From: Acinetobacter phage vB_AbaSI_3 | Sequence record: PQ382034.1 | DNA: 64,000 nucleotides | Reading direction: 5' to 3' (one strand) | Part shown: piece after piece, positions 929 to 43,977 of the stretch | Position numbering within the stretch: the first letter of the stretch is position 1 | How the letters are laid out: each line of letters opens with the position of its first letter | Notes under the pieces: model-generated | What the model saw: only the letters and a program-made list of their open reading frames with translations | What the model was told of the DNA's origin: nothing | Databases searched by the model: none | Position numbers and translations under genes: made by a program

Positions 929-1249
929 TCACGAATAATATTTTTTGCATGCAGTATAAATGCGATCAAGCCATTTCTCTTCAGTCATTTCGCCTTCATC
1001 GAACATCGTCGGATCATAGCCATAATTGAGATATCGAACCCAAGCCATCATTGGGATTTGATTATCGATTACTTCGTAGATATTACGACAATACTCGTCA
1101 AAATAGTAATACAACTGTTTCGCTTCAAGCTGAAATGCTATGCTTTTGAAGTTGCCATTGTACTTTCGATAAAGCATTGTAAACACAGTGTTAGCGAATT
1201 CTGCACGTGGATCTGTAGGTTTGTCATAAAAATCATAATACATCAACAA
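929..1249 (-). CDS. hypothetical protein (106 aa)
   Basis: ORF track entry; it is co-directional with the neighbouring genes and has no recognisable motif. Confidence 0.45.
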   Translation of the reverse strand: MLMYYDFYDKPTDPRAEFANTVFTMLYRKYNGNFKSIAFQLEAKQLYYYFDEYCRNIYEVIDNQIPMMAWVRYLNYGYDPTMFDEGEMTEEKWLDRIYTACKKYYS

Positions 1250-1482
1250 GACTCCGAGCTATTATACCATGTGATTTCAGTTGTGCCATGACTTTGAGTG
1301 ATGTCAAAATTCATGAAGTGTAACTCATGTTCTTCGATAATTTCGCCTACATGTTCAGCTAGTGTACGAACAGTGGCAAGAATTTCTTTTACACGAATTT
1401 CTGCAGTGAGCCGAGCTAAACGTTTAGCCTCTTTTTCATCTTCACGACGTTGCTTGACAACTAATGCGCCTTGTTTACTCAT
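1243..1482 (-). CDS. small hypothetical protein, member of a tandem paralog trio (conserved C-terminal HELxF...W-N/S-S-S-E-S/T-C motif)
   Basis: The C-terminus ...HELHFMNFDITQSHGTTEITWYNSSESC resembles the ends of the two ORFs immediately upstream. Confidence 0.5.
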   Translation of the reverse strand: MSKQGALVVKQRREDEKEAKRLARLTAEIRVKEILATVRTLAEHVGEIIEEHELHFMNFDITQSHGTTEITWYNSSESC

Positions 1483-1659
1483 TTAACTCTCCGAATTCGA
1501 CCAATTGCTGTTATGCCACACTTGTTCAATGACGCCATATCCATTGTTAGATGTAATAGAGAAATCTAAACGTTCTTCAATTGAAACTCGTTCGGCTTCA
1601 TCTAATAAGTCTTGAATGCTGTTGACAAGTTCTTGTAAATATTGCTTACTTTTGCTCAT
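1483..1659 (-). CDS. small hypothetical protein, paralog 2 of the trio (probable start MSKSKQYLQ)
   Basis: The track ORF 1483..1734 overlaps the next gene. The internal ATG at 1659 follows an aaaggtg SD. The C-terminus reads ...ERLDFSITSNNGYGVIEQVWHNSNWSNSES. Confidence 0.45.
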   Translation of the reverse strand: MSKSKQYLQELVNSIQDLLDEAERVSIEERLDFSITSNNGYGVIEQVWHNSNWSNSES

Positions 1660-1669
1660 AATGGCACCT

Positions 1670-1861
1670 TTAACATGTTTCCGATGATGGCGACCATGAA
1701 GAAGTCGAACCGTAATAGCGACCACCCATGCCATATGCGGGTTGAATATAAAAATTTAACTCATGCTTGTCAGCAAAAGCCTCGGCTTCATGAATAGCAG
1801 CATAGATTTTCTTACGCAATGCTTCCATATGTTCATCGATTTGGTCTTCAGACGTTCCCAT
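1670..1861 (-). CDS. small hypothetical protein, paralog 3 of the trio
   Basis: The C-terminus ...HELNFYIQPAYGMGGRYYGSTSSWSPSSETC carries the same motif. Confidence 0.45.
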   Translation of the reverse strand: MGTSEDQIDEHMEALRKKIYAAIHEAEAFADKHELNFYIQPAYGMGGRYYGSTSSWSPSSETC

Positions 1862-1923
1862 GTGTTTATCCTTAAAAGGTAATAGGACTATTATAACATA
1901 GTCCTATGATGCTGTAAACCACT

Positions 1924-3420
1924 TTAGAAATTTAATTGTGCTGCAAGATCTTCAAGTTCAGATCGTGATGCTGCAGAAATTCGATGTACTTTTTCTAGTT
2001 CTTCACGATTAGACAATTTGATTGACTCTTCTGTGATAGGAATATTCTCCTTTGCATCAACACATGCTTTAATAATGATGTCATCAGTCATCATTTCGCC
2101 AGGAATAACTGGTGCACTTGGACCATCCGCTTCATACCAACGCTGATTACCTTTCTTAACACATAACGTGAATTTGTTATTGATTGACTTGTCGCCATAA
2201 CGAGATTTAATTTGTTTCATTAGCTGAACACCTTGTGCTGCAAGCTCTTCAGTTTCAATTGCAGCTAAAATGAAGTCAGCAGTATGGCTCAAGCCTGCAG
2301 ATTCTGCAATATCGCTCATGGTAATATCGGAGTTATCCCAACCGCCACGAGTTGTTTGAGCAGCAGTCCAAATTGGGACTCCTTCTTCAACCGCTAATGC
2401 ACGTAGTTCTTCAGCGATTGCTTTAACGAGTGTATATGAATTTTCGCTAAACACCTTAATTCGAGATGATGCACAAATACCCAAGTAATCGACAACAATA
2501 ACATCTGGCTTAAATCCTTTCTTGAGTTTGAGTTCATTCAATAACGCTTTAAATGTTAATGCATGCGCACCACCAATAGGATATTGTTTGATGTACAATT
2601 GTCCTAAAACATTTGCTCGTCTCCAACGTTCCATACGAGCTTTATATTCAGGGTAACTAACATGTCCATCATCTAAGTCATCCATTGAGATATCTAGCAA
2701 ATTTGCATCAATACGTTTTGCAACAACTTCTTCTGCCATCTCCATTGAGATATAAAGAACATTTTTACCAGATTGCAAATAGTCGGCAGTTAATGAACAT
2801 AGCCCTAAAGATTTACCAACATTGACACCTGCTAAAATGATGTTAAGTGTTCCAATTTCTACACCGCCTTTAGTGATTTTTCCAAGTATAGAAAGTTTGA
2901 ATGGAATCTTACGTGCTTTGTTCTGATATGATAACCAACGAGATTCATAGTCATCCATCCAGTTATGCCCAATAGATGAATCAAAGCATACTGCTAATGC
3001 CTCTTTCATGATATCTGGGATTGCACCTACATCAGGCAATCGTTTATCTCGTTGGTTTATGGGTTTATCAGCATTGTTCTGAATTTGAACAATTTTTACA
3101 GTGGCATTATATATCGCACGTTTTTTGATAAACGCTTCTGTTTCTGGTACTAACCAATCAATAGATTCCTTTTCAGTTTTAAGATTGTTTAATAAAGTAG
3201 TTGTGCCGTTGAAGTCTACTTCGTTTAAACTTGAATTGTTGACAACCAAGTCTAATGCTACTTTTGATGGAACTCCATGGTATGCATCTACATGCTTCTT
3301 AATAGAGTTATAGAGAATTCTTGCTGGTCCTTTGTCAAAATATTCCTCTTTGAGATATGGCCATACTTTGCCAAAATACTCTTGATTCGAGATCAATTGT
3401 CCTAAAATAATATCAATCAT
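1924..3420 (-). CDS. 41: replicative DNA helicase (DnaB family, T4 gp41-like) with an extra ~100-aa C-terminal tail
   Basis: Walker A GVNVGKSLG and overall DnaB-like organisation. It sits in the replication gene block, and at 498 aa is longer than T4 gp41 (475 aa). Confidence 0.75.
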   Translation of the reverse strand: MIDIILGQLISNQEYFGKVWPYLKEEYFDKGPARILYNSIKKHVDAYHGVPSKVALDLVVNNSSLNEVDFNGTTTLLNNLKTEKESIDWLVPETEAFIKKRAIYNATVKIVQIQNNADKPINQRDKRLPDVGAIPDIMKEALAVCFDSSIGHNWMDDYESRWLSYQNKARKIPFKLSILGKITKGGVEIGTLNIILAGVNVGKSLGLCSLTADYLQSGKNVLYISMEMAEEVVAKRIDANLLDISMDDLDDGHVSYPEYKARMERWRRANVLGQLYIKQYPIGGAHALTFKALLNELKLKKGFKPDVIVVDYLGICASSRIKVFSENSYTLVKAIAEELRALAVEEGVPIWTAAQTTRGGWDNSDITMSDIAESAGLSHTADFILAAIETEELAAQGVQLMKQIKSRYGDKSINNKFTLCVKKGNQRWYEADGPSAPVIPGEMMTDDIIIKACVDAKENIPITEESIKLSNREELEKVHRISAASRSELEDLAAQLNF

Positions 3421-3445
3421 GTGAACACCTTAATTAACTAAATCA

Positions 3446-3455
3446 ATTATATCAT
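3446..3455 (-). promoter_or_regulatory. early promoter, extended -10 (TGATATAAT)
   Basis: The reverse complement of caattatatca reads TGATATAATTG, 26 nt upstream of the helicase start at 3420. Confidence 0.4.
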
Positions 3456-3471
3456 CATCTCATAGAAGCAA

Positions 3472-3487
3472 TAGGCCCGAAGGCCTA
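3472..3487. terminator. GC hairpin taggcccgaaggccta (GNRA-like gaag loop), intergenic
   Basis: A perfect 6-bp GC stem with a 4-nt loop, directly downstream of ORF 3489..3791. This is the T4-style intergenic hairpin class. Confidence 0.4.
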
Positions 3488-3488
3488 T

Positions 3489-3791
3489 TTAAAAACTGAA
3501 CGGTTTCTTACGTTTAGAGAAGTTCACAATCATTTCTTTTAGAATATATTCGATATGTGGAATCAACTCTGCCTTACGATCTTCACTTGGAGTACTGAAG
3601 CCATATGTTACTCCATTGCCAGAAATTTGGAATTCTGTAATGTAAACAATATGATCTGTACCATCTTCAAGCTTAATTAGGAGTTCATGTTTTACATCTT
3701 TCATTGCATCCTTAATAATACTTAAAGACTTTTCATATAAAGCGCCTGATGGGCCTTTATCATCTTCTTGAATTGCTTCAACTTGTTCCAT
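3489..3791 (-). CDS. hypothetical protein (100 aa)
   Basis: ORF track entry; no recognisable motif. Confidence 0.45.
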   Translation of the reverse strand: MEQVEAIQEDDKGPSGALYEKSLSIIKDAMKDVKHELLIKLEDGTDHIVYITEFQISGNGVTYGFSTPSEDRKAELIPHIEYILKEMIVNFSKRKKPFSF

Positions 3792-3794
3792 ATG

Positions 3795-4913
3795 TTACTC
3801 CAATAATGCCTTTTCCCACATCGCGTACACACGAGATGGATTGTATTGTTCATATAATGCATTAGCACGTGCAACACGTTGTTCATATGTGTCTTCGAAC
3901 TCATTTAATGCTTTAGAATATGCGGCAATAATATCATTAGTTGACATACCTTCTTCAATCCAAACAACTTTAGTTAATGGATCATGTTCAAGTGTTGCAT
4001 GGCTATAACCACGTTTGATGAGTTGAAGTACAGGCACACCTTTCTCAATAGCTTCCAATGAACCGTGTTCAATAGTGCCTGTGTCATGACAAGTGTTAAC
4101 AAGGACTAGCGCTTCGGCTAATGTTGCCTGGATAGTTGCACGCGGAACATCAATATGTACAAAAGGCTCTTTGAGATATTTCTTAGGTGGTGCCCATTGA
4201 CTTGGCAGGAATGCAGCAATTTTATGATGAGATTTACTCATTGCTTCTAAAGCTACATTTGTCTTTCTGAATTTCAAATCATAGCGCTGTGCTGAAACTA
4301 CAACACCATTAGAAGGCAGCACTTTAGGGCGATTTTCGATTAATGTAGCCGGGAAGAAATTATCTGAGATGATGTCATGCTCTTGCCAATAATCAAAATC
4401 AATTGCACCTTTAGCAACTTTGATATTCATTTTTGAATACACTTGTGCTGTAAGGTCTTTAAATGTTTGAGTTGGCACAAGATTCTTGCCGCCATTTTGG
4501 TGAATAAAAACAGCAGTACGCCAAATTGAAACAAGTGTTCGAATACTAGGATCGAGTGGCGTTGCTAAAAGGTTTCGAATTTTAGGTCCTAACCCGAGTT
4601 TGATCAAGCCATTGATAACACCTTTTGCACCTTCAACAGTAACAACTACATCATATTTTGAATGGTCCAATTGTGAAATTTTGTCAATGATTTTGTTACC
4701 GTGTTTGATAGTGTACTTGTCTACAATTGGGTAGTCAATAGATATTGCATTGACTTTATATGGGCCAAAGTTTTCATCACCGAACGCCATGTAATCGATT
4801 TCATGGTGCTTACTCATTGTTTTGATGAAATTCAATTGAACTGATTCTAAGCCACCAGAAATATAATCAGCATTAAAAGTAATAAATCGACATGGAATGT
4901 ATAAAATTTTCAT
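3795..4913 (-). CDS. GT-B fold glycosyltransferase (candidate hydroxymethyl-pyrimidine DNA glycosyltransferase), paralog 1
   Basis: The C-terminal GSLEAIEKGVPVLQ...E motif resembles the GT4 EX7E region. The N-terminus (MKILYIPCR...GGLESVQ) recalls T4 alpha-gt (ARGLEG). It is a paralog of the next gene and is adjacent to gene 42. Confidence 0.55.
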   Translation of the reverse strand: MKILYIPCRFITFNADYISGGLESVQLNFIKTMSKHHEIDYMAFGDENFGPYKVNAISIDYPIVDKYTIKHGNKIIDKISQLDHSKYDVVVTVEGAKGVINGLIKLGLGPKIRNLLATPLDPSIRTLVSIWRTAVFIHQNGGKNLVPTQTFKDLTAQVYSKMNIKVAKGAIDFDYWQEHDIISDNFFPATLIENRPKVLPSNGVVVSAQRYDLKFRKTNVALEAMSKSHHKIAAFLPSQWAPPKKYLKEPFVHIDVPRATIQATLAEALVLVNTCHDTGTIEHGSLEAIEKGVPVLQLIKRGYSHATLEHDPLTKVVWIEEGMSTNDIIAAYSKALNEFEDTYEQRVARANALYEQYNPSRVYAMWEKALLE

Positions 4914-4946
4914 GTTTCATCTCAAAGAAAGTGTAGTAGTATTTAT

Positions 4947-4962
4947 GGAGCCCGAAGGCTCC
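4947..4962. terminator. GC hairpin ggagcccgaaggctcc
   Basis: A perfect stem with a gaag loop lies between the two GT paralogs. Confidence 0.4.
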
Positions 4963-4972
4963 AGTTTCAAAG

Positions 4973-6094
4973 TTATTTTAAAACATTTTCCCAGAGTTTG
5001 AAATATGCTTCTTCGTTAAATTTGTTGTAAAGATATTCAGCCCGAGCAACACGTTGTTCATATGTATCTTCAAACTCATTTAATGCTTTAGCATACATCT
5101 CGATTAATTCTTGAGTACTTGTGCCTTCTTCAAATTCAACTCGAACAGTATTAGGGTCGTACTCAAATGTAGCATGGTTGTATCCTTTTTGAATGAGTTG
5201 AAGTACTGGCGTACCTTGAGAAATAGCTTCAAGCGATCCATTTTCTACTGTACCAGTGTTGTGGCACGTATTGACAAGAAGTTTGGCAGTTGAAATTTCT
5301 TTTTGTATGGTTTGGCGTTTGGCATCGATAATGACCCAGTGATCTTTCTCCAGCCATTTTTTGCCAGGTGCCCATTTCGATGGACAGAATGCGATCTTAG
5401 GCCCATCAAATAAATCCATTGCACCGAATGCAACATTAGATTTTCTGAATGCATTGTCAAACCGTTGGGCTTGTACAATATGCCCTTCAGAATGAAGGAC
5501 TTCAGGTTTATTTGCAATCAAAATCGGCGGATAAAATTCATCTGCAATAATATCATGCTTTTGCCAATAATCAAAATCAATGACTTCTGCAGCAATACGT
5601 TCATTCATTTTAGAATAAACCTTTGCAGCTAAATCTTTAAATGTTTGAGTAGGAACGATATTCTTTCCGCCAAGTTTATGGACCATTACTGCATTGTTCC
5701 AGCATTGTACGATACCACGAACTGATGGGTCAAGTGGAGTAGCAAGAATATTACGAACCTTTGAAATTTGTCCGAGCTCTGCTAATGTATTAAGAACCAT
5801 TTTACTGCCTTCAATGATCACAATAGCATCGTACTGGTCCCAGTCTGTGATTTCTTGAAGTTTGTACTTGATTTTATATGCATGTGCGGTAGTGAACTTT
5901 GCGCCAATAGGTTTATCAATTGATAATTCGTTAACTTTAACACTGCCGAAGTTTTCGTCGCCAAATGAAACGTAATCGATATCATGCACTTTTGACAAGT
6001 TGACAATAAAATTATACTGAACCGCTTCAAGACCGCCAGCAACACGATCAATATCAAATGGCACTGAACGGCAAGGTAAGTATAAAATTTTCAT
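4973..6094 (-). CDS. GT-B fold glycosyltransferase, paralog 2 (probable start MKILYLPCR)
   Basis: It aligns along its full length with the 3795..4913 product (shared ...NEFEDTYEQRVARA C-terminus). The second ATG at 6094 forms an ATGA overlap with the upstream gene's stop. Confidence 0.55.
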   Translation of the reverse strand: MKILYLPCRSVPFDIDRVAGGLEAVQYNFIVNLSKVHDIDYVSFGDENFGSVKVNELSIDKPIGAKFTTAHAYKIKYKLQEITDWDQYDAIVIIEGSKMVLNTLAELGQISKVRNILATPLDPSVRGIVQCWNNAVMVHKLGGKNIVPTQTFKDLAAKVYSKMNERIAAEVIDFDYWQKHDIIADEFYPPILIANKPEVLHSEGHIVQAQRFDNAFRKSNVAFGAMDLFDGPKIAFCPSKWAPGKKWLEKDHWVIIDAKRQTIQKEISTAKLLVNTCHNTGTVENGSLEAISQGTPVLQLIQKGYNHATFEYDPNTVRVEFEEGTSTQELIEMYAKALNEFEDTYEQRVARAEYLYNKFNEEAYFKLWENVLK

Positions 6095-6095
6095 A

Positions 6096-6638
6096 TTATG
6101 CTCCAATAAAATTTTCAAGGGTTAAATCATAAACAACATCAGTAAATGATTTAGCTTCATTAATATTGTTGTGTACATCATGATCGAGGATTTTATATGG
6201 AGTTATATTAAATTCATCATATACTTCATTAAACCGATCCACAATTGCATTGAATTGATCTTCACTTACTGTAATTAAATCATCAGTAAAGCTATCTACA
6301 AGTTTGTTTCGTGTTAGCCCAATAACCAAGACTTCATTGTTTTGAATGAAACGTCTGAAATCTTCTTTGAAGATTTCAACTGGCTTTCCACGAAGAACAC
6401 TTTCATATACAATGTTACTTAAACCGCCTCGATCCAAAACATAGGTTTTACTGTTATCGACATAATTTAACATTGTTTCAAAAATTGCGACTTCATTTCG
6501 AGTTAGACAAGTGAAACGTCCTTCACTTGTCCTTTTCGGAAATTCCATCAAGGTTACATCAAAATGACGAGTAAGATTGCTAATCAAAGTTGTCTTACCA
6601 GCATTATCAGGCCCTTCTACAAGAATTATTTTTGCCAT
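6096..6638 (-). CDS. P-loop kinase (thymidylate/shikimate-kinase-like fold), substrate unknown
   Basis: N-terminal Walker A ILVEGPDNAGKTTL at the extreme N-terminus, as in small (d)NMP or sugar kinases. It is distinct from the gp1 dNMP kinase at 45.6 kb. Confidence 0.5.
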   Translation of the reverse strand: MAKIILVEGPDNAGKTTLISNLTRHFDVTLMEFPKRTSEGRFTCLTRNEVAIFETMLNYVDNSKTYVLDRGGLSNIVYESVLRGKPVEIFKEDFRRFIQNNEVLVIGLTRNKLVDSFTDDLITVSEDQFNAIVDRFNEVYDEFNITPYKILDHDVHNNINEAKSFTDVVYDLTLENFIGA

Positions 6639-7570
6639 ACATCTTCACCAGGTTGAATAACTACTTCATCATATGAAGGCATTATATACTCACTAATGAT
6701 GTTAGCATCAAAATAAATCAATTCACCTAACCCGGGATGAAACACATTTTGTGGATTTTCGTTGTAGATAATTGTCGGACGCTGAGACAACGTAATGTAA
6801 TACGCGATCTTTGACATTTTAACATCCATGATGGTTACATCTGGATATAGCTCGGCAATCTGATCTTTAAAATCGACATATGTGTCATTTGGATCTGTGA
6901 TAATGAGCATATTACCAGTTTCTGCACAATCTTTTACAACATCCATGAATCTATAACATTTGTCAGAGAGTCTGAATGGAAAGAATACAATATTAGAACC
7001 CATGTGCTGAGTGTCATCGATATTTTTAATATATCGTGCAATGACATCAGGATTGACTACCTTTTGAGTCATCACAATTTTATCTGCATCGATTCCATGA
7101 GCAATAAATTCTGCTCGTTGAGATTCATTCAATACAAATACTTTAATAGATTGCCGTGCAGTTTCAAGATCAGATTCCCACCATTTATCAATGTATGGAC
7201 GATCTAATCCAGGAACTTTGGAAATATTTGCATTGAAAATAAATTCATGAACTCCATTATAACCAGTGACATCAGTTATTAATACGTCGATGTTGTTTAT
7301 TCGCATAATTTCATCAACATTAGATTCATTCCAATACCAGAACCATTGGCGAGTTTCTTCAGCATTAGTACCATAATGAAATTGTACAAAGTTGAAATCT
7401 GGAAATAAGAATTCTAATTCAGATTTGTCTGAAATGTTGAATGGTACAGCAATCAAATCACCTTTCTGTGCACGATGTAGATGCAACTGAAAGTTGCCGT
7501 CTTTGAGGACGGCATACTTTCTAGTTTCATATGATCGCATCGAAAAAATTGGTACAATCATTCTAGCCAT
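6626..7570 (-). CDS. hypothetical protein (314 aa) within the modification module
   Basis: No motif recognised. Its position between the kinase and the dCMP hydroxymethylase suggests a role in DNA modification (a third transferase is possible). Confidence 0.45.
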   Translation of the reverse strand: MARMIVPIFSMRSYETRKYAVLKDGNFQLHLHRAQKGDLIAVPFNISDKSELEFLFPDFNFVQFHYGTNAEETRQWFWYWNESNVDEIMRINNIDVLITDVTGYNGVHEFIFNANISKVPGLDRPYIDKWWESDLETARQSIKVFVLNESQRAEFIAHGIDADKIVMTQKVVNPDVIARYIKNIDDTQHMGSNIVFFPFRLSDKCYRFMDVVKDCAETGNMLIITDPNDTYVDFKDQIAELYPDVTIMDVKMSKIAYYITLSQRPTIIYNENPQNVFHPGLGELIYFDANIISEYIMPSYDEVVIQPGEDVWQK

Positions 7571-7575
7571 ATCAT

Positions 7576-8283
7576 TTATCCTAAAAAGTTCTTAACGTAA
7601 TCCAAATCACGTTCAAATACATGTGCAGATACAATTGAGTGTGCATAAGTGCCAAGTCCTACACCACATTCTTTAGCAACATGTTCCATGAATCGATGCA
7701 TAAGATAAAAATCTAATTGCATTACCACTGCACAGTTTTGACTACGCATATGAGTATGCATGTACAAACGTCCTTCACGAATATAAAAGGTAATAGAATC
7801 TGTACATGGATATTCTAAAGTTTCATCTGAATCTAAAAGAACTTGGTCTTGCTCCTGAAGAATTTGGAAAACTACTCGTCGTGAGTTTGGTTTTTCTTTA
7901 AGTTCTTTAATAAGAGCTGGCATTTGGGCGGCGATTCGTGGCCCGTAGAAGGTGTTGAAATTCGAAGGAAGAGTATCCGTCTTCGGCTTTGCAATGAACT
8001 TCGCGACATTTGGATACTCCTTAAACGCTTGTTCCGCATCTGTGCCACCTTGAATCATGAATTCCCAGAATTTTTCTGCATAACCATAATCAATACGATT
8101 GATACGTTTGTCTTTAAATGTTGCACCAACATCTGGAAGTGCTACCTCTAAAAGAATTGATCCGATTTCACGACATTTGCCGATACGAGAATCCGTGACA
8201 AATTCAGGTTCAGTAATCACTAGATAATTGAGGCGTTTGAATGCTTCTTCAAATGTGCTAGCTAAAATATACTTTGTCATCAA
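7576..8283 (-). CDS. 42: deoxycytidylate (pyrimidine) hydroxymethylase, thymidylate-synthase fold (T4 gp42-like)
   Basis: Conserved blocks match T4 gp42: NSRR (T4 NPDSRRGIM), PCTDSITFYIR (MCTNTVQYLIR) and MRSQNCAVVMQLDFY (MRSNDVVFGFRNDYAW), with a histidine near the C-terminus. Confidence 0.7.
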   Translation of the reverse strand: MMTKYILASTFEEAFKRLNYLVITEPEFVTDSRIGKCREIGSILLEVALPDVGATFKDKRINRIDYGYAEKFWEFMIQGGTDAEQAFKEYPNVAKFIAKPKTDTLPSNFNTFYGPRIAAQMPALIKELKEKPNSRRVVFQILQEQDQVLLDSDETLEYPCTDSITFYIREGRLYMHTHMRSQNCAVVMQLDFYLMHRFMEHVAKECGVGLGTYAHSIVSAHVFERDLDYVKNFLG

Positions 8284-8675
8284 TTCACCTCTGGGACATA
8301 TGGTTGTTTAGATAATAATTCATTGTTACGAAAAGCATCTTTGAATTCTTTAGGGTTCAACGCCTTATCATCAATGATCCAGTCATAAACCGGCTTATGA
8401 GTTATTAAGTGGTGATATTTCAATCCGATTTTCTTGAGATTTTTTATTAAAGGTGGCAAGATAATCGAATCAATTAATTCTGGGCCTACTGACTTCATGC
8501 CTCTGGCTGTGAACAGCGTGATTGTATGCCCTTGATCATATAACGAATTAATAGTATCAACCATCTGTTGGTCTGGAACGAAATTCTCATAATCTCGATT
8601 ATCATTCCAGACAGTAATGGTGTTATCGATATCTATGCAAAAATGTTTTGCACCAGTCATTAAAGTTTCTCCCAA
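8280..8675 (-). CDS. HAD-superfamily phosphatase (small, KdsC-like size)
   Basis: The DxDxT motif CIDIDNTIT is present near the N-terminus of a 131-aa protein. Confidence 0.55.
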   Translation of the reverse strand: MGETLMTGAKHFCIDIDNTITVWNDNRDYENFVPDQQMVDTINSLYDQGHTITLFTARGMKSVGPELIDSIILPPLIKNLKKIGLKYHHLITHKPVYDWIIDDKALNPKEFKDAFRNNELLSKQPYVPEVN

Positions 8676-12477: not shown

Positions 12478-12785
12478 GAGGCGTCTCCTTTAAGTAAAAT
12501 TAACTCGGTTGTAGTATAGTTAAGTTGATCAATAGCGATACAAGTATCTTCCCATTGTTTAACAACATCCTGAACTTCAGCAATGACTTCGTAGTCAGTT
12601 CCTGGATAGTTGTCCCAATCTTCTGCACGTCGGATCGGTTCATCACTAAATGCGGTAATAGTTCCATCTTTGTCGACTGCTACATGAGCAGCCCATTCTG
12701 GTAAGTATACTGTTACAGGACCAGTTTTTTCAGAACCTGAGATTAGTGTAACATTTAACGCATGTGGATAGTAAGTAATTTTCAT
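12474..12785 (-). CDS. hypothetical protein (103 aa)
   Basis: ORF track entry. Confidence 0.45.
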   Translation of the reverse strand: MKITYYPHALNVTLISGSEKTGPVTVYLPEWAAHVAVDKDGTITAFSDEPIRRAEDWDNYPGTDYEVIAEVQDVVKQWEDTCIAIDQLNYTTTELILLKGDAS

Positions 12786-12836
12786 GACGATTTCCTCATT
12801 AGGAATAATTATTTGATAGAGCTATTATAATACCAC

Positions 12837-12870
12837 AAAAGGCAAAAGTAAATAAAAACTTTTGCCTTTT
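12837..12870. terminator. hairpin aaaaggcaaaag...cttttgcctttt
   Basis: An 11-bp stem flanked by A/T runs on both strands, in an intergenic position. Confidence 0.35.
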
Positions 12871-12875
12871 GATAA

Positions 12876-13175
12876 TTAACCGAAACGCCTTGTAAGATGT
12901 TCAACCATATTGTCTGCAATAGATGCAGCTGATGAAGAAACTCCATCGCATCCACGAAGGACACCGCTATTTGGCAGATATGCCAATGCACAAGCCTTCC
13001 AGAATTCACGCTTCTCTAATTCTGTGATTGCGGGAATAGGTGTACTAAAAAGCTGGTATTCGCGAGCTTCATCTACCGATACAGTAGTTTTACATTTAGT
13101 ACAACGAACTTTAGGTGGACTACTTAGCAATACTGCGTCGAAATTAAATTCATGATTGCATAATAAACTGTTCAT
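12876..13175 (-). CDS. hypothetical protein (99 aa; CxxC...CxxC pairs)
   Basis: ORF track entry; cysteine pairs (CNHE...RCTKCKT) suggest a zinc ribbon. Confidence 0.45.
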   Translation of the reverse strand: MNSLLCNHEFNFDAVLLSSPPKVRCTKCKTTVSVDEAREYQLFSTPIPAITELEKREFWKACALAYLPNSGVLRGCDGVSSSAASIADNMVEHLTRRFG

Positions 13176-13208
13176 AACTTACCTCTAGAGGGCATAGAGC
13201 CCTCGGTT

Positions 13209-14381
13209 TTAAAAGTCAAATAAATCTTCTAATGAAGAACGTTTTTCTGCTTGCATACCTGCAGATTCACACATACCTTCCAAAGGTTTCTTATATGTTT
13301 TTGTAAACAATGACATAACGTCAACATGTTTTAAAACATCTTCACGAATTTCTTTAGGAAGTTCGTTGCCTGATGGCCATGCAATAACTTTGTCGCCAAA
13401 TGGATTTCCAGGTTTCAAAGGCAAGATCATAACTTTATCACCTTCACTAATATCCGGTAAGTTATCGAATGCCTTAATTGCACGTCGATACGTCAAAACA
13501 CCACGAATATGACTAGGACATTTCAATCCAGGGAAGCCATTATCATCATATTTTGCAATGTTATTTGCAGTTCTTACACCTGCAATAACTTTGTAATCAA
13601 GATTTCTAAATTCATTTTCAAATTTCTTGAAATAGTCTTGAAGTGGCTTTTCACCTTCTTGAAGCATGATTCGAATACTTTCTAATAATGCATCTTTAAC
13701 CGCTTTAGGTGTAGATGATTGTTGAGTTTCCATGCCCATGATTTTCAAGTATGGCTCTTTAAAACGAGTACCTTCCATGTCATACACATTTAATGCATAA
13801 CGTTTCTTAGCTCGCCAGAATCCGCCGATGCCGTTAGAACCAAGTGGTGGGCATGCAATAGCTTCACGATCCATGAACATTAATTGCTCATAGTTGTTAA
13901 GATATTCGCACAGTTCTTGGAAGCCTGCATTAATAACCGGTTCGATTTTCTTTGAACCTACTGCATCCAAGAAGTCAACTAATTTTTCAGTTGATGCAAA
14001 TTTTTCAATGCCAACTTTATCAATGAGTGGACTCAATTCAATATACAATGAATCTGTATCACCATAAATTACATACGGATGATTAGTTGTTCCACACATT
14101 TCATTAAGGTATGCATTAATTTTTCGTTCTGTCCATTGAAGGACCAATTGTCCGAAAATAGTAATCGCTTCTGCATTACGAAGATCGTAAAATCTAAAGT
14201 AGATATTGCCGAGTGCCCCATATAATGAGTTAATGAGCAACTTCCGATTAATTTGATTCGTATCACACAAAACAATATAATTTTCACATTCATGCTCAAG
14301 TTCAAGCAATTCTTCTTGTGAAAGTGTTTTGAGATATTCGATTTCGGATTCAGTTAAGTCACGACTAAAATCTAATTTCAT
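13209..14381 (-). CDS. 43B: DNA polymerase, C-terminal (palm/thumb) segment, gp43B
   Basis: It aligns with T4 gp43 residues ~520-898 (LINSLYGALGNIYFRFYDLRNAEAITIFGQ, YGDTDS, KKRYALNVYDMEG, IMGMETQQSSTPKA, GNPFGDKVIAWPSG). Confidence 0.9.
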   Translation of the reverse strand: MKLDFSRDLTESEIEYLKTLSQEELLELEHECENYIVLCDTNQINRKLLINSLYGALGNIYFRFYDLRNAEAITIFGQLVLQWTERKINAYLNEMCGTTNHPYVIYGDTDSLYIELSPLIDKVGIEKFASTEKLVDFLDAVGSKKIEPVINAGFQELCEYLNNYEQLMFMDREAIACPPLGSNGIGGFWRAKKRYALNVYDMEGTRFKEPYLKIMGMETQQSSTPKAVKDALLESIRIMLQEGEKPLQDYFKKFENEFRNLDYKVIAGVRTANNIAKYDDNGFPGLKCPSHIRGVLTYRRAIKAFDNLPDISEGDKVMILPLKPGNPFGDKVIAWPSGNELPKEIREDVLKHVDVMSLFTKTYKKPLEGMCESAGMQAEKRSSLEDLFDF

Positions 14382-14402
14382 ATAAACTCCAAATTGATGG
14401 GA

Positions 14403-14567
14403 TTATTCTATAACATCATAATCAACTGACACTATAGCTTTAATTGTTAGTTCCTTTGAACAGGATTCGCAATTGACTTTGAATTCTTCATCAGCATGTC
14501 TCCAATGCTCAAAGTAATCAGACGTGTCAAGTTCAGAATTGCAGTGTGGGCAGTATATTTCAAACAT
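14403..14567 (-). CDS. small zinc-ribbon protein (54 aa: CPHC...CESC)
   Basis: Hand-translated: MFEIYCPHCNSELDTSDYFEHWRHADEEFKVNCESCSKELTIKAIVSVDYDVIE. It lies immediately upstream of 43B and is below the ORF-track cutoff. Confidence 0.45.
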   Translation of the reverse strand: MFEIYCPHCNSELDTSDYFEHWRHADEEFKVNCESCSKELTIKAIVSVDYDVIE

Positions 14568-14677
14568 TTCTGTGCCTCAAAAGGGATATGACAATTATAT
14601 CATATCCCTTATCAAAAGCTTAACTATAATTCAGATTGTATAATGTAATACGAATCACTTTAGGCGTACGTTTATAT

Positions 14678-14896
14678 TCAAAACATCGCATTGATAACTT
14701 CGGTGCCGGCAATTACAGGATTTTTAAACATGATACAACCTGTAACAAATCCGGCTAAAAACAACACCGGAATACAGATTAATAGGGCTACAAAAACTCG
14801 ATACCACAAGCTAACGTATTCACCAATTGATTCACAATTTTCATTTGCTACTTTAATTTGTTCGAAGATATTCATAGGCCTAACTCCCACAGGCAT
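14678..14896 (-). CDS. small membrane protein (72 aa) in the gp43 intervening segment
   Basis: Hydrophobic stretch YRVFVALLICIPVLFLAGFVTGCIMF. Confidence 0.4.
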   Translation of the reverse strand: MPVGVRPMNIFEQIKVANENCESIGEYVSLWYRVFVALLICIPVLFLAGFVTGCIMFKNPVIAGTEVINAMF

Positions 14897-15189
14897 TGGT
14901 TTAATAACTGATTGATTGAACGTTCGTTATGTATAGATTCATTAAGAAGCTGAGCTATAACACGATAATCTGTTTCACTATTGCATCGAGCGTTAAGAAT
15001 TGTTTGTGCATTTGTGCGACACATATCAAACGTTTTGAAGAAACTGTCATAACGAGGCAAACGAATTGCATTTAACACATTAGGTTTCCAAACAACATTG
15101 AACTTGCCATTGACTTCATCAATAAAGAACAACATAGTTTCAATAGATTGAGTATATGTGTACTCTTCGGCCGATGTATAAACTCTCAT
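14872..15189 (-). CDS. hypothetical protein (105 aa) in the gp43 intervening segment
   Basis: ORF track entry; no nuclease motif seen. Confidence 0.45.
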   Translation of the reverse strand: MRVYTSAEEYTYTQSIETMLFFIDEVNGKFNVVWKPNVLNAIRLPRYDSFFKTFDMCRTNAQTILNARCNSETDYRVIAQLLNESIHNERSINQLLNQCLWELGL

Positions 15190-15530
15190 CGACTTACCTC
15201 CATATCAAAATCTACAAATTTAGCTCTACATTCCTGATAGACACTATGCATTAAATCTAACACTCCATAATTGAATTGAGAATTTTCTGATTTCCCAAGC
15301 AGAGCTCGGGAGCGTGCCGCTATTTCTGAATTTATAAATTCTAGAACTTCTTTACCTTGTGGATATCGTAGCATCTTAGGCACGAATTGTGCGTCAATAG
15401 TAATATTACATCTGCCTCTTAACACAGTAGCTATAAATGGATAATATTCTATCCAATGCTCGCCTGTCGAGCTTGATATTACTCTATTTTGTCCATACAT
15501 AATAACCTCGTAATATATCAAATTAATCAA
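15186..15530 (-). CDS. hypothetical protein (114 aa) in the gp43 intervening segment
   Basis: ORF track entry; overlaps the upstream gene at its stop/start. Confidence 0.45.
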   Translation of the reverse strand: MINLIYYEVIMYGQNRVISSSTGEHWIEYYPFIATVLRGRCNITIDAQFVPKMLRYPQGKEVLEFINSEIAARSRALLGKSENSQFNYGVLDLMHSVYQECRAKFVDFDMEVSR

Positions 15531-15557
15531 ATCATCTAATTTCGGCGCTGTGCGCCG

Positions 15558-15648
15558 GCTGCGCAGCAGCTATTCTGTACCGAACGGCAGATATAATTAG
15601 AGCGGTGAACCGGTAGAACCATTATACCATCAAAATTTTGTAAAGCAC
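15558..15648. repeat. copy A of a dispersed inverted-repeat element (GC hairpin gctgcgcagc + attctgta + 60-bp core)
   Basis: 15589-15648 matches the reverse complement of 46994-47054 at 59 of 60 positions. The gctgcgcag / attctgta motifs further left also match 47191-47226. It is followed by the palindrome aaagcactcgtgtgcttt. Confidence 0.7.
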
Positions 15649-15695
15649 TCGTGTGCTTTATGAATATAGATCATTTTATGAACACTCAAACCAAA

Positions 15696-15923
15696 TCATA
15701 ACAATTCTTGGATTCTTCTAGATTTATACTGCATAAGTTCGGTACGTGTCATTCCTGAAGTGTCCTGTTCACACTGCGTGTTAACTGTTTTAATCATAAT
15801 GAGGGTATTATGATTTATATTATCTATAGGAAGTTGTCGCCGGTGTGTGTCTGGCGTAACTATTCTGCATGGATATTGCTTTGCGATATCTCTAATACTT
15901 TCATAATATTGCTTAAGTGGCAT
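15696..15923 (-). CDS. hypothetical protein (75 aa) in the gp43 intervening segment
   Basis: ORF track entry; an extended -10 box lies 26 nt upstream. Confidence 0.45.
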   Translation of the reverse strand: MPLKQYYESIRDIAKQYPCRIVTPDTHRRQLPIDNINHNTLIMIKTVNTQCEQDTSGMTRTELMQYKSRRIQELL

Positions 15924-15948
15924 ATCAAATCTCCATAGATTTTAGAAT

Positions 15949-15958
15949 AATTATATCA
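15949..15958 (-). promoter_or_regulatory. early promoter, extended -10 (TGATATAAT)
   Basis: Reverse complement of aattatatca. Confidence 0.4.
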
Positions 15959-15995
15959 TAATCAAAAAGCAAAGTAAATATTTTAGACAAAAATA

Positions 15996-16017
15996 AAGGA
16001 CCCATTTGGGTCCTTTA
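15996..16017. terminator. hairpin aaaggaccc-attt-gggtccttt
   Basis: A perfect 9-bp stem, intergenic within the gp43 insert. Confidence 0.45.
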
Positions 16018-16029
16018 GATAAAATGAAA

Positions 16030-16320
16030 TTATACAACGCTATACATTGTAACCGCAATAGGTAGAATTTCATTTGTCAATGTATTAAGACTGCCTCCAG
16101 TGATAGGAGTACCTTGGAAACGATGAACGATACGTTCAATTTCAACAACTTTTCGTTTATTAGTTTCTCGATCACGTGGATCAATTACCAATTTGATATT
16201 ATCATCTTTAAATTCCAGTGCAAGGATCCCAAGAGTAATTTTTGCATCTAACGAACGTGTAGAACGAGTATCAATTACTGGAGCTGCTGTGTTAAATTGT
16301 AATTTAGATTGCTGGATCAT
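16030..16320 (-). CDS. hypothetical protein (97 aa; start MIQQSKLQ) in the gp43 intervening segment
   Basis: The track ORF 16030..16386 begins at a TTG that would span the promoter. The internal ATG at 16320 lies 35 nt downstream of a TGATATAAT box. Confidence 0.45.
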   Translation of the reverse strand: MIQQSKLQFNTAAPVIDTRSTRSLDAKITLGILALEFKDDNIKLVIDPRDRETNKRKVVEIERIVHRFQGTPITGGSLNTLTNEILPIAVTMYSVV

Positions 16321-16354
16321 AATATCTCTACGTACTTTGTAAGTTGATAGGATT

Positions 16355-16363
16355 ATTATATCA
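16355..16363 (-). promoter_or_regulatory. early promoter, extended -10 (TGATATAAT), immediately after the 43A stop
   Basis: Reverse complement of attatatca at 16355-16363. Confidence 0.4.
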
Positions 16364-16387
16364 ATAACCCTATCACATGTAAACAAA

Positions 16388-17896
16388 TTATTTCATTAAT
16401 TTTTTAATCACTTCGGCATTACGTTTTGCAGCCATCATTTTCTTCTTCCATTCTTTACGTTGGAAGAACACTTTAGTAATTTCTTGTGGAATGATACCTT
16501 GCTTTGTCTTCGAATACATCATACCACTTGGCGAGCATGAGAATTCATTTGAAGGGCTCGGCGCAATCTTATTAATGAAATCGCTAAGTTTAGGCGGCGC
16601 AAATTGTCCTGCAATTGTTTCTGGGCTAATGTTTACTTGGCGAATGATTGACGGATACAGAGATGTTACGTCAAACGACAAAACATATTTGTACGCACCA
16701 GGCACAGGGTTTTTAACATATGCGCCTTCATACGGTTGTCGAACATTTGGCTTAGCTTCCGGTAAAACTAAGTGCTCGGCTTTTAATGAGTTGAAGATAA
16801 TTGCATCCCAAGTTTTCACAGGACTCATTACTGTTGCAATATTCATTCGAGCGTAATAGCCCATTGAAATTGACAGGTTGATAAATCCACGTTTTGCGTC
16901 AATTGCTTGTACACAGTACACATCGACAATGTTATATGAAATATAACGCTGGTGGTTTGATTCACGTAATTTGTCGATTGGACCGTCATATTCTAATTTG
17001 TTGATGCCGGCTTCATATTCTGCAATATAATCGAGTTTATATGATGGCTGTGAAGTAAACGCAAACTTTTTATATAAATCCATGTAATCGAGAATCATGA
17101 TTCCAGAAATATTGAAAATTTCTTTATCTCCATACATGTTTTGAATGACTTTTGACGTTACTTTACCAAAAGGACTTAAACGTTTCATGTTCGAGACACC
17201 AAGAACGTTTTTGATACGATTTACAATATATGGAATATCAAATCCTTCAACGTTCCAACCGGTGAAGATGACAGGAGTTTTTTCTTCCCATAAACGAATG
17301 TATTCTAACAGCATTTCCTTTTCTGTTTCGAATGGCATATACACAACTTTATCTAAAATATGTTGTGGAACTTCATCGCCGCCTTCATCAATTGATTTGC
17401 CTGCAAGAACCGGATCCCACTTTGAAACACGTCCACGTTGAGAGTTCAACAAGTCAAACACGTAGTATTTGTCATCAATAGAATCATAGTGTGTAATTGC
17501 ATCAATTTCATATTTTGCAAAGGTCGGATTCGGGAACTCTCCTGCTGTTACCTCGATGTCACAGTTTGCAACACGAATTGCATTTCTGCTATATGTGATG
17601 TCCTTTTTTCCATACACATCAGAAATATATGCAAGTTTGAAGTCATCCATACCTAAAATTTCTACAATTCCACGTGTCTTTTGCATCCAGTCTTTAGCTT
17701 CACGAATGGAGCTAAAACGTTTAGGAATACATGGCTTGCCATAAATGTCTTTATATTTTGATTCAACGCCTTCTTTGGCATGAATGAACAGTGTAGGCTC
17801 ATATGGAATTTCACGAACTTTTTCGACGCCATTTTCCACATAACGCTCTTGAATAAGGTCGCCAGATTGTTCAACTACTAGATAGAAATTATCCAC
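16388..17896 (-). CDS. 43A: DNA polymerase, N-terminal and 3'-5' exonuclease segment, gp43A
   Basis: Near-identical blocks to T4 gp43 residues 1-505 (DFKLAYISD, RVANCDIEVT, YEIDAITHYDSIDD, FTGWN.EGFD.PYI.NR, HQRYISYNI.DV, VMSPIKTWDAIIFNSLK, DVTSLYPSIIRQVNISPETI, GIIP.EI.KVFFQRK.WKKKM). It ends where T4 continues with KGAGSCS... Confidence 0.9.
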   Translation of the reverse strand: MDNFYLVVEQSGDLIQERYVENGVEKVREIPYEPTLFIHAKEGVESKYKDIYGKPCIPKRFSSIREAKDWMQKTRGIVEILGMDDFKLAYISDVYGKKDITYSRNAIRVANCDIEVTAGEFPNPTFAKYEIDAITHYDSIDDKYYVFDLLNSQRGRVSKWDPVLAGKSIDEGGDEVPQHILDKVVYMPFETEKEMLLEYIRLWEEKTPVIFTGWNVEGFDIPYIVNRIKNVLGVSNMKRLSPFGKVTSKVIQNMYGDKEIFNISGIMILDYMDLYKKFAFTSQPSYKLDYIAEYEAGINKLEYDGPIDKLRESNHQRYISYNIVDVYCVQAIDAKRGFINLSISMGYYARMNIATVMSPVKTWDAIIFNSLKAEHLVLPEAKPNVRQPYEGAYVKNPVPGAYKYVLSFDVTSLYPSIIRQVNISPETIAGQFAPPKLSDFINKIAPSPSNEFSCSPSGMMYSKTKQGIIPQEITKVFFQRKEWKKKMMAAKRNAEVIKKLMK

Positions 17897-17925
17897 GTTA
17901 TCTCCTTGGTAGGGTATTTTGTATC

Positions 17926-17934
17926 ATTATAACA
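17926..17934 (-). promoter_or_regulatory. early promoter, extended -10 (TGTTATAAT) upstream of 43A
   Basis: The reverse complement of attataaca lies 30 nt upstream of the 17896 start. Confidence 0.4.
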
Positions 17935-17972
17935 CCACAAAAGAGGAAGCTAACTCCCTCTTTTATTTTAAA

Positions 17973-18206
17973 TTACTTAGATTCAACAACTGTAGTCTTT
18001 GTCATTTCTTCGCGAGGTATCCAAGTGTTCTTGCCAGTTTTGACATAACATCCGGTGATAAAACTATATTTGGTTTGACGACCTGTAATAGATTCATAAC
18101 TGTTACATTTAACATAACCACTTACCGTATTGTATGTTAAGCCTACTACAACAATAACACAGACGATAATAACAGAGAATACGAGTTCAGTTAAATTATT
18201 ACTCAT
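17973..18206 (-). CDS. small membrane protein (77 aa)
   Basis: TM segment LTELVFSVIIVCVIVVVGLTY; sits between regA and 43A. Confidence 0.4.
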   Translation of the reverse strand: MSNNLTELVFSVIIVCVIVVVGLTYNTVSGYVKCNSYESITGRQTKYSFITGCYVKTGKNTWIPREEMTKTTVVESK

Positions 18207-18589
18207 TATGCACCTACGACATATTTTGATTTAAGAGTCCACTCAGCTTTCTGTGCAGCTTTGATAACACGGAAATTGTTAGTAACTTCAATTTCAGGTG
18301 GGACATATTCAACCTCAATAAGTCCCCATGCTTCAAGTGTCTTAGCGATAGAAACGGTACGTTGAACATCTTCATCACTAATATTAACTACTTTACCATC
18401 GAGGCGCATCATATCTTTAAAATGAACGATGTACATTTGATCAGCGCCAGTTTGCGGAGACTGCTTCTTCAAAATATGGCAGGATTGATAAAGTACTTTA
18501 TCTCGTTGGTTAGCGATACCCATACGAGTCAAAGTTTCTTTAACTTTAAGAAAATTTTCTGGGTGTACCAATTTAATAGGGATCATCAT
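18206..18589 (-). CDS. regA: RegA translational repressor
   Basis: FLKVKETLTRMGIAN..DKVLYQSCHIL.K matches T4 RegA; correct size (127 aa) and position (62-regA-43). Confidence 0.85.
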   Translation of the reverse strand: MMIPIKLVHPENFLKVKETLTRMGIANQRDKVLYQSCHILKKQSPQTGADQMYIVHFKDMMRLDGKVVNISDEDVQRTVSIAKTLEAWGLIEVEYVPPEIEVTNNFRVIKAAQKAEWTLKSKYVVGA

Positions 18590-30104: not shown

Positions 30105-30709
30105 TCAAGTGCCTCTGCAATTTTGTCAGTATTTCCTAATTTGGTAAGACGTTCAGTTCGGGTGAATTTCACAAGTGTGCCCTTTGTTGCCACCCAATGA
30201 TATGAATCATTACGATGAAATAACTGACCTGGCTTCTTGTGCATTTTCGTTTGTGGTACATAGATTTCACCGCGAATGACTTCGCCTACTGTAGTGAATC
30301 CTTTAATATCACTTTCGGATACCACAGGCAAGCTAGTAGAGTTTTCAGTGAAAATAATATAGTAAGTGTTGTAGTCGACCCAAATCTTTACTTGGTCGAT
30401 GCCATCAACAAAACTTGTTGCATTTTCGAGTAAATATTTCTTCCATCCAGCGGTTGAACCAAATGATGGTCTGCCATTAGCTTCAAATGCGCCTTTAGTA
30501 GTTTCAGACATTATGTCTAAATCTTTTAATGAGACACCTAACTGGTTTGCCTGATATTTTAATGCACCATACAAATCTGATAACTCAACTTGTGCCATTA
30601 TGCGGTTGTCTGAGGCAAGAGCGTCAATAAACTCTTGAGCTTCTTCAATGAGTTTGTATGCACTTGAGTGCATACTTTTCTTTATGTCAGCAACATGGTA
30701 CCCAGCCAT
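30086..30709 (-). CDS. hypothetical protein with a MazG-like N-terminal region
   Basis: LIEEAQEFIDAL...ELSDLYGAL resembles the EExxE...E..D helix pair of MazG/HisE-type NTP pyrophosphohydrolases. Confidence 0.35.
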   Translation of the reverse strand: MAGYHVADIKKSMHSSAYKLIEEAQEFIDALASDNRIMAQVELSDLYGALKYQANQLGVSLKDLDIMSETTKGAFEANGRPSFGSTAGWKKYLLENATSFVDGIDQVKIWVDYNTYYIIFTENSTSLPVVSESDIKGFTTVGEVIRGEIYVPQTKMHKKPGQLFHRNDSYHWVATKGTLVKFTRTERLTKLGNTDKIAEALECLNDI

Positions 30710-41099: not shown

Positions 41100-41340
41100 G
41101 ATGGTAAGTTCATCAGGTCTTACAAGCCCTTAAAGGAACTTAATCTGGCAGGCACTGAACGAATCGAACGCTCGTTAATGGGGTTGGAGCCCACTGTAAT
41201 AACCACTATACGAAATGCCTGTGGCGGAAAGCAGTGTAATCGAAACACAACCGAATTAACAGTCCACTCGCTTAGCAGGCGGTGCCAATCACCCTATTGG
41301 ATTACTTTCCTTAGAATAAACATAATGATGTGACAAGCCA
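41100..41340 (-). ncRNA. candidate structured non-coding RNA region (GC-enriched, multiple local hairpins) adjacent to the tRNA array
   Basis: The region contains hairpin cctgatggtaagttcatcagg and other local stems, has higher GC than its surroundings, and has no convincing ORF (the + ORF 41082..41333 has no SD and odd composition). T4 carries stable RNAs C/D near its tRNA genes. Confidence 0.3.
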
Positions 41341-41688: not shown

Positions 41689-41765
41689 TGGTCTCCGTAA
41701 AATGATTTGAACATTTGACCCTATCGTCCCAAACGATATGCTCTACCAGACTGAGCTATACGGAG
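41689..41765 (-). tRNA. tRNA-Pro (anticodon TGG), CCA encoded
   Basis: Hand-folded: acceptor CTCCGTA/TACGGAG, D arm GCTCAGTCTGGTAGAGC, anticodon loop TTTGGGA, T arm AAATGTTCAAATCATTT, ACCA 3' end. Confidence 0.75.
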
Positions 41766-41766
41766 A

Positions 41767-42163: not shown

Positions 42164-42170
42164 ATAATGT

Positions 42171-43976: not shown

Positions 43977-43977
43977 A

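Follow-up and report, generated by a model that had tools for sequence, protein, structure and literature searches.

Introduction

The replicative DNA polymerase gp43 is encoded by two genes in several T4-like phages, and the locus studied here, at positions 13209-17896 of a 64,000-nucleotide stretch of Acinetobacter phage vB_AbaSI_3 (sequence record PQ382034.1; this whole stretch is called the window), carries such a pair, 43A and 43B. A split gp43 was described for Acinetobacter phage 133 (Petrov et al. 2006 and 2010, quoted in PMC3061061 and PMC2988022), and a split gene 43 was reported for phage ZZ1 (PMC4177764). GenBank records have used the label "gp43A/gp43B split DNA polymerase" since those of Acj9, Acj61 and Ac42 in 2010. 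The layout is therefore already known, annotated in dozens of genomes and present in the literature since 2006. The spacers at gp43 fingertip splits of T4-like phages range from 2 bp in Aeromonas phages to 3 kb in an Acinetobacter phage (PMC3061061), and the fingertip has been argued to be a recurrent target (PMC3061061, PMC2988022). For Aeromonas phage 25, the two gp43 subunits were recovered together on purification and had activity (Petrov et al. 2010, summarised in PMC2988022); Aeromonas phages 25 and 44RR are the only ones for which assembly into an active polymerase is known (PMC2988022). A split at the fingers tip has also been exploited in polymerase engineering, in the form of split Pfu (PMC3061061).

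Compared with these systems, the window locus is a member of the Acinetobacter group (133, Acj9, Acj61, Ac42 and ZZ1). It has the same break, which leaves proteins of 502 and 390-391 amino acids, the same gene neighbourhood, and a multi-kilobase spacer that begins with a homolog of the open reading frame (ORF) here called ORF96. It differs from the group in spacer detail only, with 6 ORFs in 2.0 kb compared with 5-10 ORFs in 1.7 kb (5 ORFs, Maestro) to 3.9 kb (10 ORFs, Acj61), and with a slot next to 43B whose occupant varies. The Aeromonas phages 44RR2.8t, 25, 31 and Aes002 are alike in having two cistrons broken in the same tip loop, within a few alignment columns, but their cistrons are separated by an untranslated sequence with or without a GIY-YIG endonuclease gene; this spacer amounts to 2 bp or one endonuclease gene, with no conserved multi-gene cassette, and a group I intron lies within 43B after motif B.

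Free-standing homing endonucleases have split other genes of T4-like phages, as with mobE in Aeh1 nrdA and mobA in T4 gene 39/60. The present locus is similar in that an essential enzyme gene exists as two cistrons whose products would reassemble, and in that sibling Lazarusviruses carry a MobE-family gene at the split site, beside a divergent tract. It differs in that the cassette of the window is itself without an endonuclease gene.

Results

Two gp43 cistrons with a break in the fingers tip

Genes 43A and 43B (Table 1) are separated by a gap of 2006 bp and are together colinear with full-length T4 and RB69 gp43. The 43A protein matches residues 1-500 of T4 gp43 and 1-502 of RB69 gp43, both with solved structures (E about 1e-214), and residues 3-390 of 43B match RB69 gp43 residues 516-903 (E about 1e-154). 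In Pfam, 43A matched the exonuclease domain of PolB together with the first third of its polymerase domain, and 43B the part of the polymerase domain that follows. None of the exonuclease or polymerase motifs is disrupted; 43A has Exo I-III and motif A, and 43B has motifs B and C and KKRY. Each cistron has its own Shine-Dalgarno sequence and start codon, in agreement with the earlier note on this DNA, which had described independent cistrons with separate starts, and 43A ends in a TAA stop codon. The ratio of nonsynonymous to synonymous substitution rates (dN/dS) relative to phage PhT2 was 0.07 for 43A and equally 0.07 for 43B; both halves are under equally strong purifying selection. We are highly confident that the locus encodes the PolB-type replicative polymerase in its naturally split form (gp43A + gp43B), as is typical of T4-like Acinetobacter phages.

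The alignment to T4 and RB69 gp43 placed the break at about residues 503-515 in RB69 numbering. When aligned with the contiguous polymerases of T2 and PspYZU05, 43A ends with ...NAEVIKKLMK and 43B begins with MKLDFSRDLTES..., and some ten loop residues of the contiguous enzymes are missing, with a stop codon, the cassette and a start codon in their place. The fingers domain of RB69 gp43 spans residues 469-572 in the RB69 structures. By this alignment the break falls at the distal tip of the fingers, in the loop that links the two long helices and that is also broken in Aes002, PVA8 and Ac42; the inter-domain linker proposed in the earlier note is not where the alignment puts it. The labels exo/N-terminal for 43A and palm/thumb for 43B also proved wrong: 43A additionally encodes palm motif A and the first finger helix, 43B encodes the second finger helix with motif B as well as the thumb, and the palm is shared. 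Because motif A lies in 43A and motifs B and C lie in 43B, the fingers and the palm are each predicted to be built from both chains. The palm active site would then be composite, with catalytic carboxylates from different polypeptides, 43A supplying the motif A aspartate and 43B those of motif C.

Table 1. Positions of the two genes, the cassette ORFs and the associated signals. Positions are those of the window unless residues, another genome or a locus is named.
Feature	Position	Strand	Details
Gene 43A, N-terminal polymerase subunit	16388..17896	minus	ORF listing; 502 amino acids, GTG start
43A exonuclease motifs	residues 113-115; 215-220; 321-325		Exo I DIE; Exo II NVEGFD; Exo III YNIVD
43A motif A (palm)	residues 409-416		DVTSLYPS
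Hairpin 5' of 43A, terminator-like	17964..17939	minus	sequence read; fold z = -2.8
Extended -10 TGTTATAAT 5' of 43A	17934..17926	minus	between hairpin and Shine-Dalgarno
Shine-Dalgarno AAGGAG of 43A	17907..17902	minus	whole upstream region 17902..17964
Early-type sigma-70 promoter-like site TTTACA-17-TGATATAAT	16383..16355	minus	directly after 43A stop; 11/12 consensus positions, TG extension
ORF96	16030-16320	minus	96 amino acids from ATG, or 118 from upstream TTG
Stem-loop AAAGGACCC-AAAT-GGGTCCTTT and T-run	16017..15994	minus	fold z = -4.4
Early promoter TTTACT-17-TGATATAAT	15978..15950	minus	adjoins stem-loop 16017..15994; PeSL arrangement
ORF75	15696-15923	minus	ORF listing; 75 amino acids
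Dispersed repeat, copy A	about 15531..15660	minus	ends just ahead of ORF104 start codon
ORF104	15186-15500	minus	ORF listing; 104 amino acids
ORF105	14872-15189	minus	105 amino acids; PHROG 26620, E = 1e-28
ORF65	14678-14875	minus	65 amino acids; PHROG 24434, E = 2e-30
Conserved terminator-like hairpin AAGGGATATGAYA...TCATATCCCTT, then TTTTG	14578..14610 (hairpin 14610..14581)	minus	fold z = -4.4
ORF54	14403-14567	minus	54 amino acids; CPHC...CESC cysteine pairs, directly 5' of 43B
Shine-Dalgarno GGAG of 43B	14390..14387	minus	seven bases ahead of ATG
Gene 43B, C-terminal polymerase subunit	13209..14381	minus	ORF listing; 390 amino acids, ATG start
43B motifs	residues 47-55; 106-111; 192-195		motif B KLLINSLYG; palm motif C YGDTDS; KKRY
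Dispersed repeat, copy B	46995-47054 (module 46995-47232)	plus	inverted relative to copy A
Other repeat copies	PhaR5 30488-30537; PhaR5 62388-62430
Module copy	locus L007 30420-30545 (one of the two other copies)	minus
Module copy	locus L008 12365-12600 (one of the two other copies)	plus

Distribution of the split locus

Megablast placed the window among the T4-like phages of Acinetobacter baumannii (Straboviridae, Twarogvirinae, Lazarusvirus). Phage PhaR5 is 99.2% identical over all 4688 bp of the locus, and 37 independent phage records cover at least 80% of this 4688-bp query in one place, each at an identity of at least 95%; many of the matching records already use the labels "split DNA polymerase", "gp43A" and "gp43B". 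The lineages compared were Lazarusvirus (PhaR5, AM101), Hadassahvirus (PhT2, Maestro), Zedzedvirus (ZZ1), the AB1I1M-1 group, Acj61, Ac42 and Acj9. The same architecture was present in all nine of these phages, with a 43A of 1509 nucleotides and a 43B of 1173-1176 nucleotides, and the neighbourhood 45-44-62-regA-small ORF-43A is common to Hadassahvirus, the AB1I1M-1 group, Acj61, ZZ1, Ac42 and Acj9.

A 200-residue query from the junction matched 2286 of 50,697 phage records, 1898 of which are contiguous there. These matches were ranked by coverage times identity, and the top position was taken by the contiguous polymerase of Pseudomonas phage PspYZU05 (60.5% identity). Since the ranking rule puts PspYZU05 first, an unsplit gp43 junction closer than this one appears to be absent from the collection.

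An old cassette of small ORFs between the halves

The gap is filled by six minus-strand ORFs of 54-105 amino acids. Its contents were found where the earlier note had placed them, namely the six small ORFs, with a membrane protein and a CPHC...CESC ribbon among them, a promoter, a hairpin and copy A of a dispersed repeat. No ORF scored above the Pfam thresholds, and the PHROGs matched are families of unknown function only. Endonuclease, transposase and integrase domains were absent from all six in Pfam and PHROGs, and the search for homing endonucleases that had been proposed for these ORFs returned no HNH or GIY-YIG gene.

The first of them, ORF96 (PHROG 21960, E = 4e-35), has homologs of 56-85% identity in PhT2, Maestro, AB1I1M-1 and Acj61, is present in phage 133 too, and has a dN/dS of 0.15. 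ORF75 has homologs of 38-46% identity in Hadassahvirus and none at the same slot in AB1I1M-1 or Acj61, and ORF104 is kept in position only, with 17-25% identity to the same-slot ORF in relatives. Homologs of ORF105 occur in four other lineages (34-54% identity; dN/dS 0.29). ORF65 has a single hydrophobic, predicted membrane-spanning helix (Kyte-Doolittle 19-residue maximum 2.78), and its homologs are 38-69% identical in PhT2, Maestro and Acj61; the Maestro record labels its copy as a transmembrane protein. ORF54 gave weak zinc-ribbon matches in Pfam and belongs to PHROG 6504.

The earlier note had judged this cargo to be new. However, 37 GenBank records contain the same cassette at 96.5-99.4% identity and a 38th contains part of it, and the core ORFs of the cassette (ORF96, ORF105 and ORF65) are conserved at the protein level across the Twarogvirinae lineages inspected. 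Because these core ORFs are conserved across lineages and under purifying selection, the cassette is best read, from sequence comparison, as an old, vertically inherited island under purifying selection and not as cargo new to this phage.

In another reading, cassette proteins restricted to these lineages have co-evolved with the split polymerase and serve it as accessory or assembly subunits, for example by bridging its halves; the locus would then be a multi-subunit operon. ORF96 would be the main candidate and the zinc-ribbon ORF the second, with ORF105 also in question. ORF96 occurs in one copy each in 67 phage records, all but one of which are named Acinetobacter phage, it is the first gene after 43A in 10 out of 10 genomes inspected, and a collection of 5.8 billion proteins yielded only 8 clusters of homologs for it. 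The zinc-ribbon ORF has no location other than directly 5' of 43B, which it occupies in three divergent lineages. Vertical descent within a single subfamily explains this co-occurrence equally well, however, and the Aeromonas split polymerases work with a spacer of 2 bp (PMC3061061). The zinc ribbon is dispensable, being absent in Maestro, PhT2 and the MobE-carrying siblings, and no fold or family among the cassette proteins suggests DNA or polymerase binding: an AlphaFold2 model of ORF96 (predicted local distance difference test score, pLDDT, 84) had no PDB fold match at E<=0.001, and its matches in a viral structure library were limited to its own Acinetobacter-phage homologs. We therefore regard a role as polymerase partners as unlikely.

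A variable slot beside 43B

The cassette of the naturally split gp43 ends in a slot whose upstream edge lies at the conserved terminator-like hairpin (also conserved in AM101, Maestro and PhT2) and which extends to the ribosome-binding site of 43B. The slot is empty in Maestro and PhT2. It holds the 54-residue zinc-ribbon ORF in the window, in 21 other Lazarusvirus records, and in AB1I1M-1 and Acj61, where the ORFs are 37-43% identical across lineages. In AM101, Lazarus, Berthold and others it holds instead a 374-residue endonuclease gene on the opposite strand, which in AM101 was assigned to MobE (PHROG 655, E = 4e-29). Among Lazarusvirus records, the zinc-ribbon allele is present in 22, counting the near-identical match to the window, and the MobE allele in 16. 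The zinc-ribbon ORF was also considered as an endonuclease remnant, which was rejected on account of the full-length homologs in the same slot of Acj61 and AB1I1M-1.

The two alleles are represented by AM101 locus 4233-5357 and window 14216-14572. In MobE carriers, about the first 37 codons of 43B (14271-14381, ~110 nucleotides) are highly divergent, and the rest is ~99% identical to the window. Scattered differences reach about codon 54, and identity returns exactly at the start of the highly conserved region coding for motif B. The divergent 5' tract is the pattern that would be expected of endonuclease-driven co-conversion or of a cleavage-resistant allele. The window carries the endonuclease-free allele and is thus a potential homing recipient. 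The current MobE insertion is younger than the split.

Fingertip splits of independent origin, with an endonuclease gene at the same site, exist elsewhere. Aeromonas phage Aes002 has a GIY-YIG endonuclease gene there, and in Vibrio phage PVA8 (schizo-T4; locus 4831-8498) gp43 is split in the same loop, with a small ORF and an opposite-strand HNH gene between the halves. Because R10Z, a relative of PVA8, has a contiguous gp43, the PVA8 split appears, from this comparison, to be independent and recent. With endonuclease genes at the same site in both Aes002 and PVA8, the fingertip is a recurrent target.

Promoter-stem-loop elements and the dispersed repeat

Promoter-stem-loop motifs termed PeSL and PmSL have been described for T4-type phages (PMC2839356, PMC4122927). 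The cassette resembles these in carrying, between small variable ORFs, an A3-4G3-loop-C3T3-4 stem-loop followed by a TTTACW-N17-TAYWAT promoter, at 16017..15950; a similar pair lies 5' of 43A. Both this stem-loop and the hairpin at the edge of the variable slot fold better than 200 out of 200 shuffled sequences. That hairpin bounds the slot, and the dispersed repeat described below lies at no presence/absence boundary among the genomes compared.

The 60 bp at window positions 15589-15648 recur in inverted orientation as copy B with 98.3% identity, where zero matches are expected in shuffled sequences. They are part of a module present in four copies per genome, of which one leads into ORF104, one lies upstream of rnh, and two, one of them followed in the window by an 18-nucleotide tandem array, are directed against flanking genes in long intergenic gaps. 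Copy A contains a Mot-box-like TGCTTTA overlapped by a small hairpin, an extended -10 TGGTATAAT, a transcribed segment GGTTCTACCGGTTCACCGCTCTAA and GC-rich hairpins. The segment of ~30 nucleotides is invariant in the module copies and is unchanged in the cassette copy of PhT2 despite ~22% divergence of its flanks. Copy A folded no better than shuffled sequence (z = -0.5), and Rfam contained no family for the module, with chance-level matches only on copy B. The phage encodes MotA and AsiA.

The module is similar to PmSL/PeSL elements in its Mot-box-like TGCTT and -10 element, found at four sites, but differs in the spacing from Mot box to -10 (14 nucleotides compared with about 12) and in also conserving the ~30 transcribed nucleotides 3' of the -10, which fall outside the PeSL definition. 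The dispersed repeat is a genome-wide regulatory module, a promoter plus leader, that resembles the PeSL/PmSL motifs. Because the two gene-opposed copies end near terminator-like hairpins, the copies could be small regulatory RNA genes or conserved 5' leaders. Two other identities were considered for the repeat and rejected. A tRNA-like or otherwise known RNA was set aside because the ARAGORN tRNAs lie only at 41-44 kb and the Rfam matches on copy B are at chance level, and mobile-element ends because copy A lies inside the cassette and the other copies are ordinary intergenic regions.

The link that the earlier note had drawn between the split and this repeat does not hold, the module being present at four places in the genome and not specific to the polymerase. 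The related reading, that the cassette is a recently acquired mobile element with phage-specific cargo linked to the repeat, can point to the 60-bp repeat inside the cassette, to the variable slot by 43B, and to siblings with MobE and a tract like that left by co-conversion. It is nevertheless very unlikely: the order of the core ORFs is conserved across seven lineages inspected, the GC content is even, at 0.31-0.42 in the locus and its flanks alike, the window cassette is free of mobility domains, and the repeat is internal instead of flanking, with other copies in intergenic promoter regions.

Two polypeptides or a spliced chain

A naturally split gp43 has to be distinguished from one made into a single chain by splicing, either of the 2-kb spacer as a group I or group II intron or of the proteins by a split intein. 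Aeromonas phages do have group I introns in 43B (Aes002 record; PMC2988022), and the Maestro record gives gp43 as a two-piece join. A scan of 12500-18500 with Rfam, however, found no intron family at E<=1, its one small RNA match being at chance level (E = 0.8), and a Pfam search of the locus proteins found no Hint or intein domain. At most 1-2 residues are left unaligned at the end of 43A, and 2 at the start of 43B. As 43A is aligned to T4 gp43 through residue 501 of 502 and 43B from residue 3, there is no room for split-intein halves. These results agree with the earlier note, which had seen neither an intein nor an intron signature. The spacer is also made up of six conserved ORFs under purifying selection, with promoters and terminators of their own, and the upstream half ends in a stop codon, with a ribosome-binding site and ATG opening the downstream half. 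Splicing into one chain is highly improbable, and independent translation followed by non-covalent assembly is, by analogy, most likely for gp43 of this phage.

An artefact of this sequence (a frameshift, misassembly or inserted foreign segment), the first two of which the earlier note had named as what could overturn the split, has a negligible probability even though the ZZ1 authors found many split genes of their first assembly to be erroneous, since gene 43 of ZZ1 was still split after resequencing by polymerase chain reaction (PMC4177764), and an assembly artefact or a decaying pseudogene is excluded by the 37 independent records, the lengths kept in more distant lineages, and the low dN/dS of both halves.

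Some points nonetheless weigh against the reading of the locus as two independently expressed polymerase subunits. The Maestro record (1225-5682 of the Maestro locus) joins gp43 as a single coding sequence across a 1.7-kb cassette in an intron-like manner; this is best regarded as an annotation choice without support, because there is no intron or intein signature, 43A ends in TAA and 43B has its own GGAG and ATG. The promoter scan found no convincing promoter between the hairpin at the slot edge and 43B, whose transcription would depend on either read-through or an unrecognised promoter. The association and activity of 43A and 43B in this phage are extrapolated from Aeromonas phage data. An origin of the split by insertion of an endonuclease gene would likewise be reconstructed from relatives, the window cassette holding neither an endonuclease nor a recognisable remnant.

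Other features of the window

An array of about 6 tandem copies of the 18-nucleotide unit GTATCAGATGATATAGAT lies directly 3' of repeat copy B (47057-47191). PhaR5 has 54 bp less in the gap that holds it, between gp3-like and gp2-like genes; because this shortfall equals three units, the copy number of the array may vary between strains. ARAGORN detected a cluster of nine phage tRNA genes at 41146-44297. One of these, at 44223-44297 on the minus strand, has the anticodon CTA, which ARAGORN labels 'Pyl', and is of the amber-suppressor type. Two pairs of direct repeats, 3864-3958/5039-5133 and 4425-4515/5603-5693, are 74-77% identical, and their shared spacing of 1175-1178 bp suggests that a gene of about 1.2 kb was duplicated in tandem.

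Discussion

With the interruption in the fingers-tip loop, 43A stops there and 43B is translated from its own ribosome-binding site and ATG, to yield two polypeptides. These would assemble without a covalent link, with the long finger helices of the different chains pairing antiparallel. The spacer is an old island of small early-type genes with stem-loop/promoter modules, consisting of a conserved core and a variable slot. The split itself may have originated in the ancestor of the subfamily through an insertion into the poorly conserved region coding for the fingertip, a site that homing endonucleases still use today.

The locus leaves existing knowledge unchanged, and the role of the cassette ORFs, the transcription of 43B and the four-copy leader are modest leads. 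If the unlikely case of accessory subunits were true, PolB in these Acinetobacter phages would be a holoenzyme with at least three subunits. The value of the analysis for this phage lies in annotation: the locus should be recorded as two genes, 43A and 43B, broken in the fingers, and neither as a pseudogene nor as a joined coding sequence, and the phage can be noted as a carrier of the MobE-free allele at a locus where a homing endonuclease gene is present in some phages and absent from others. More broadly, split gp43 illustrates the reshaping of essential genes by homing endonucleases, and natural split polymerases show that the PolB fold tolerates a break at the fingers tip and an active site drawn from two chains.

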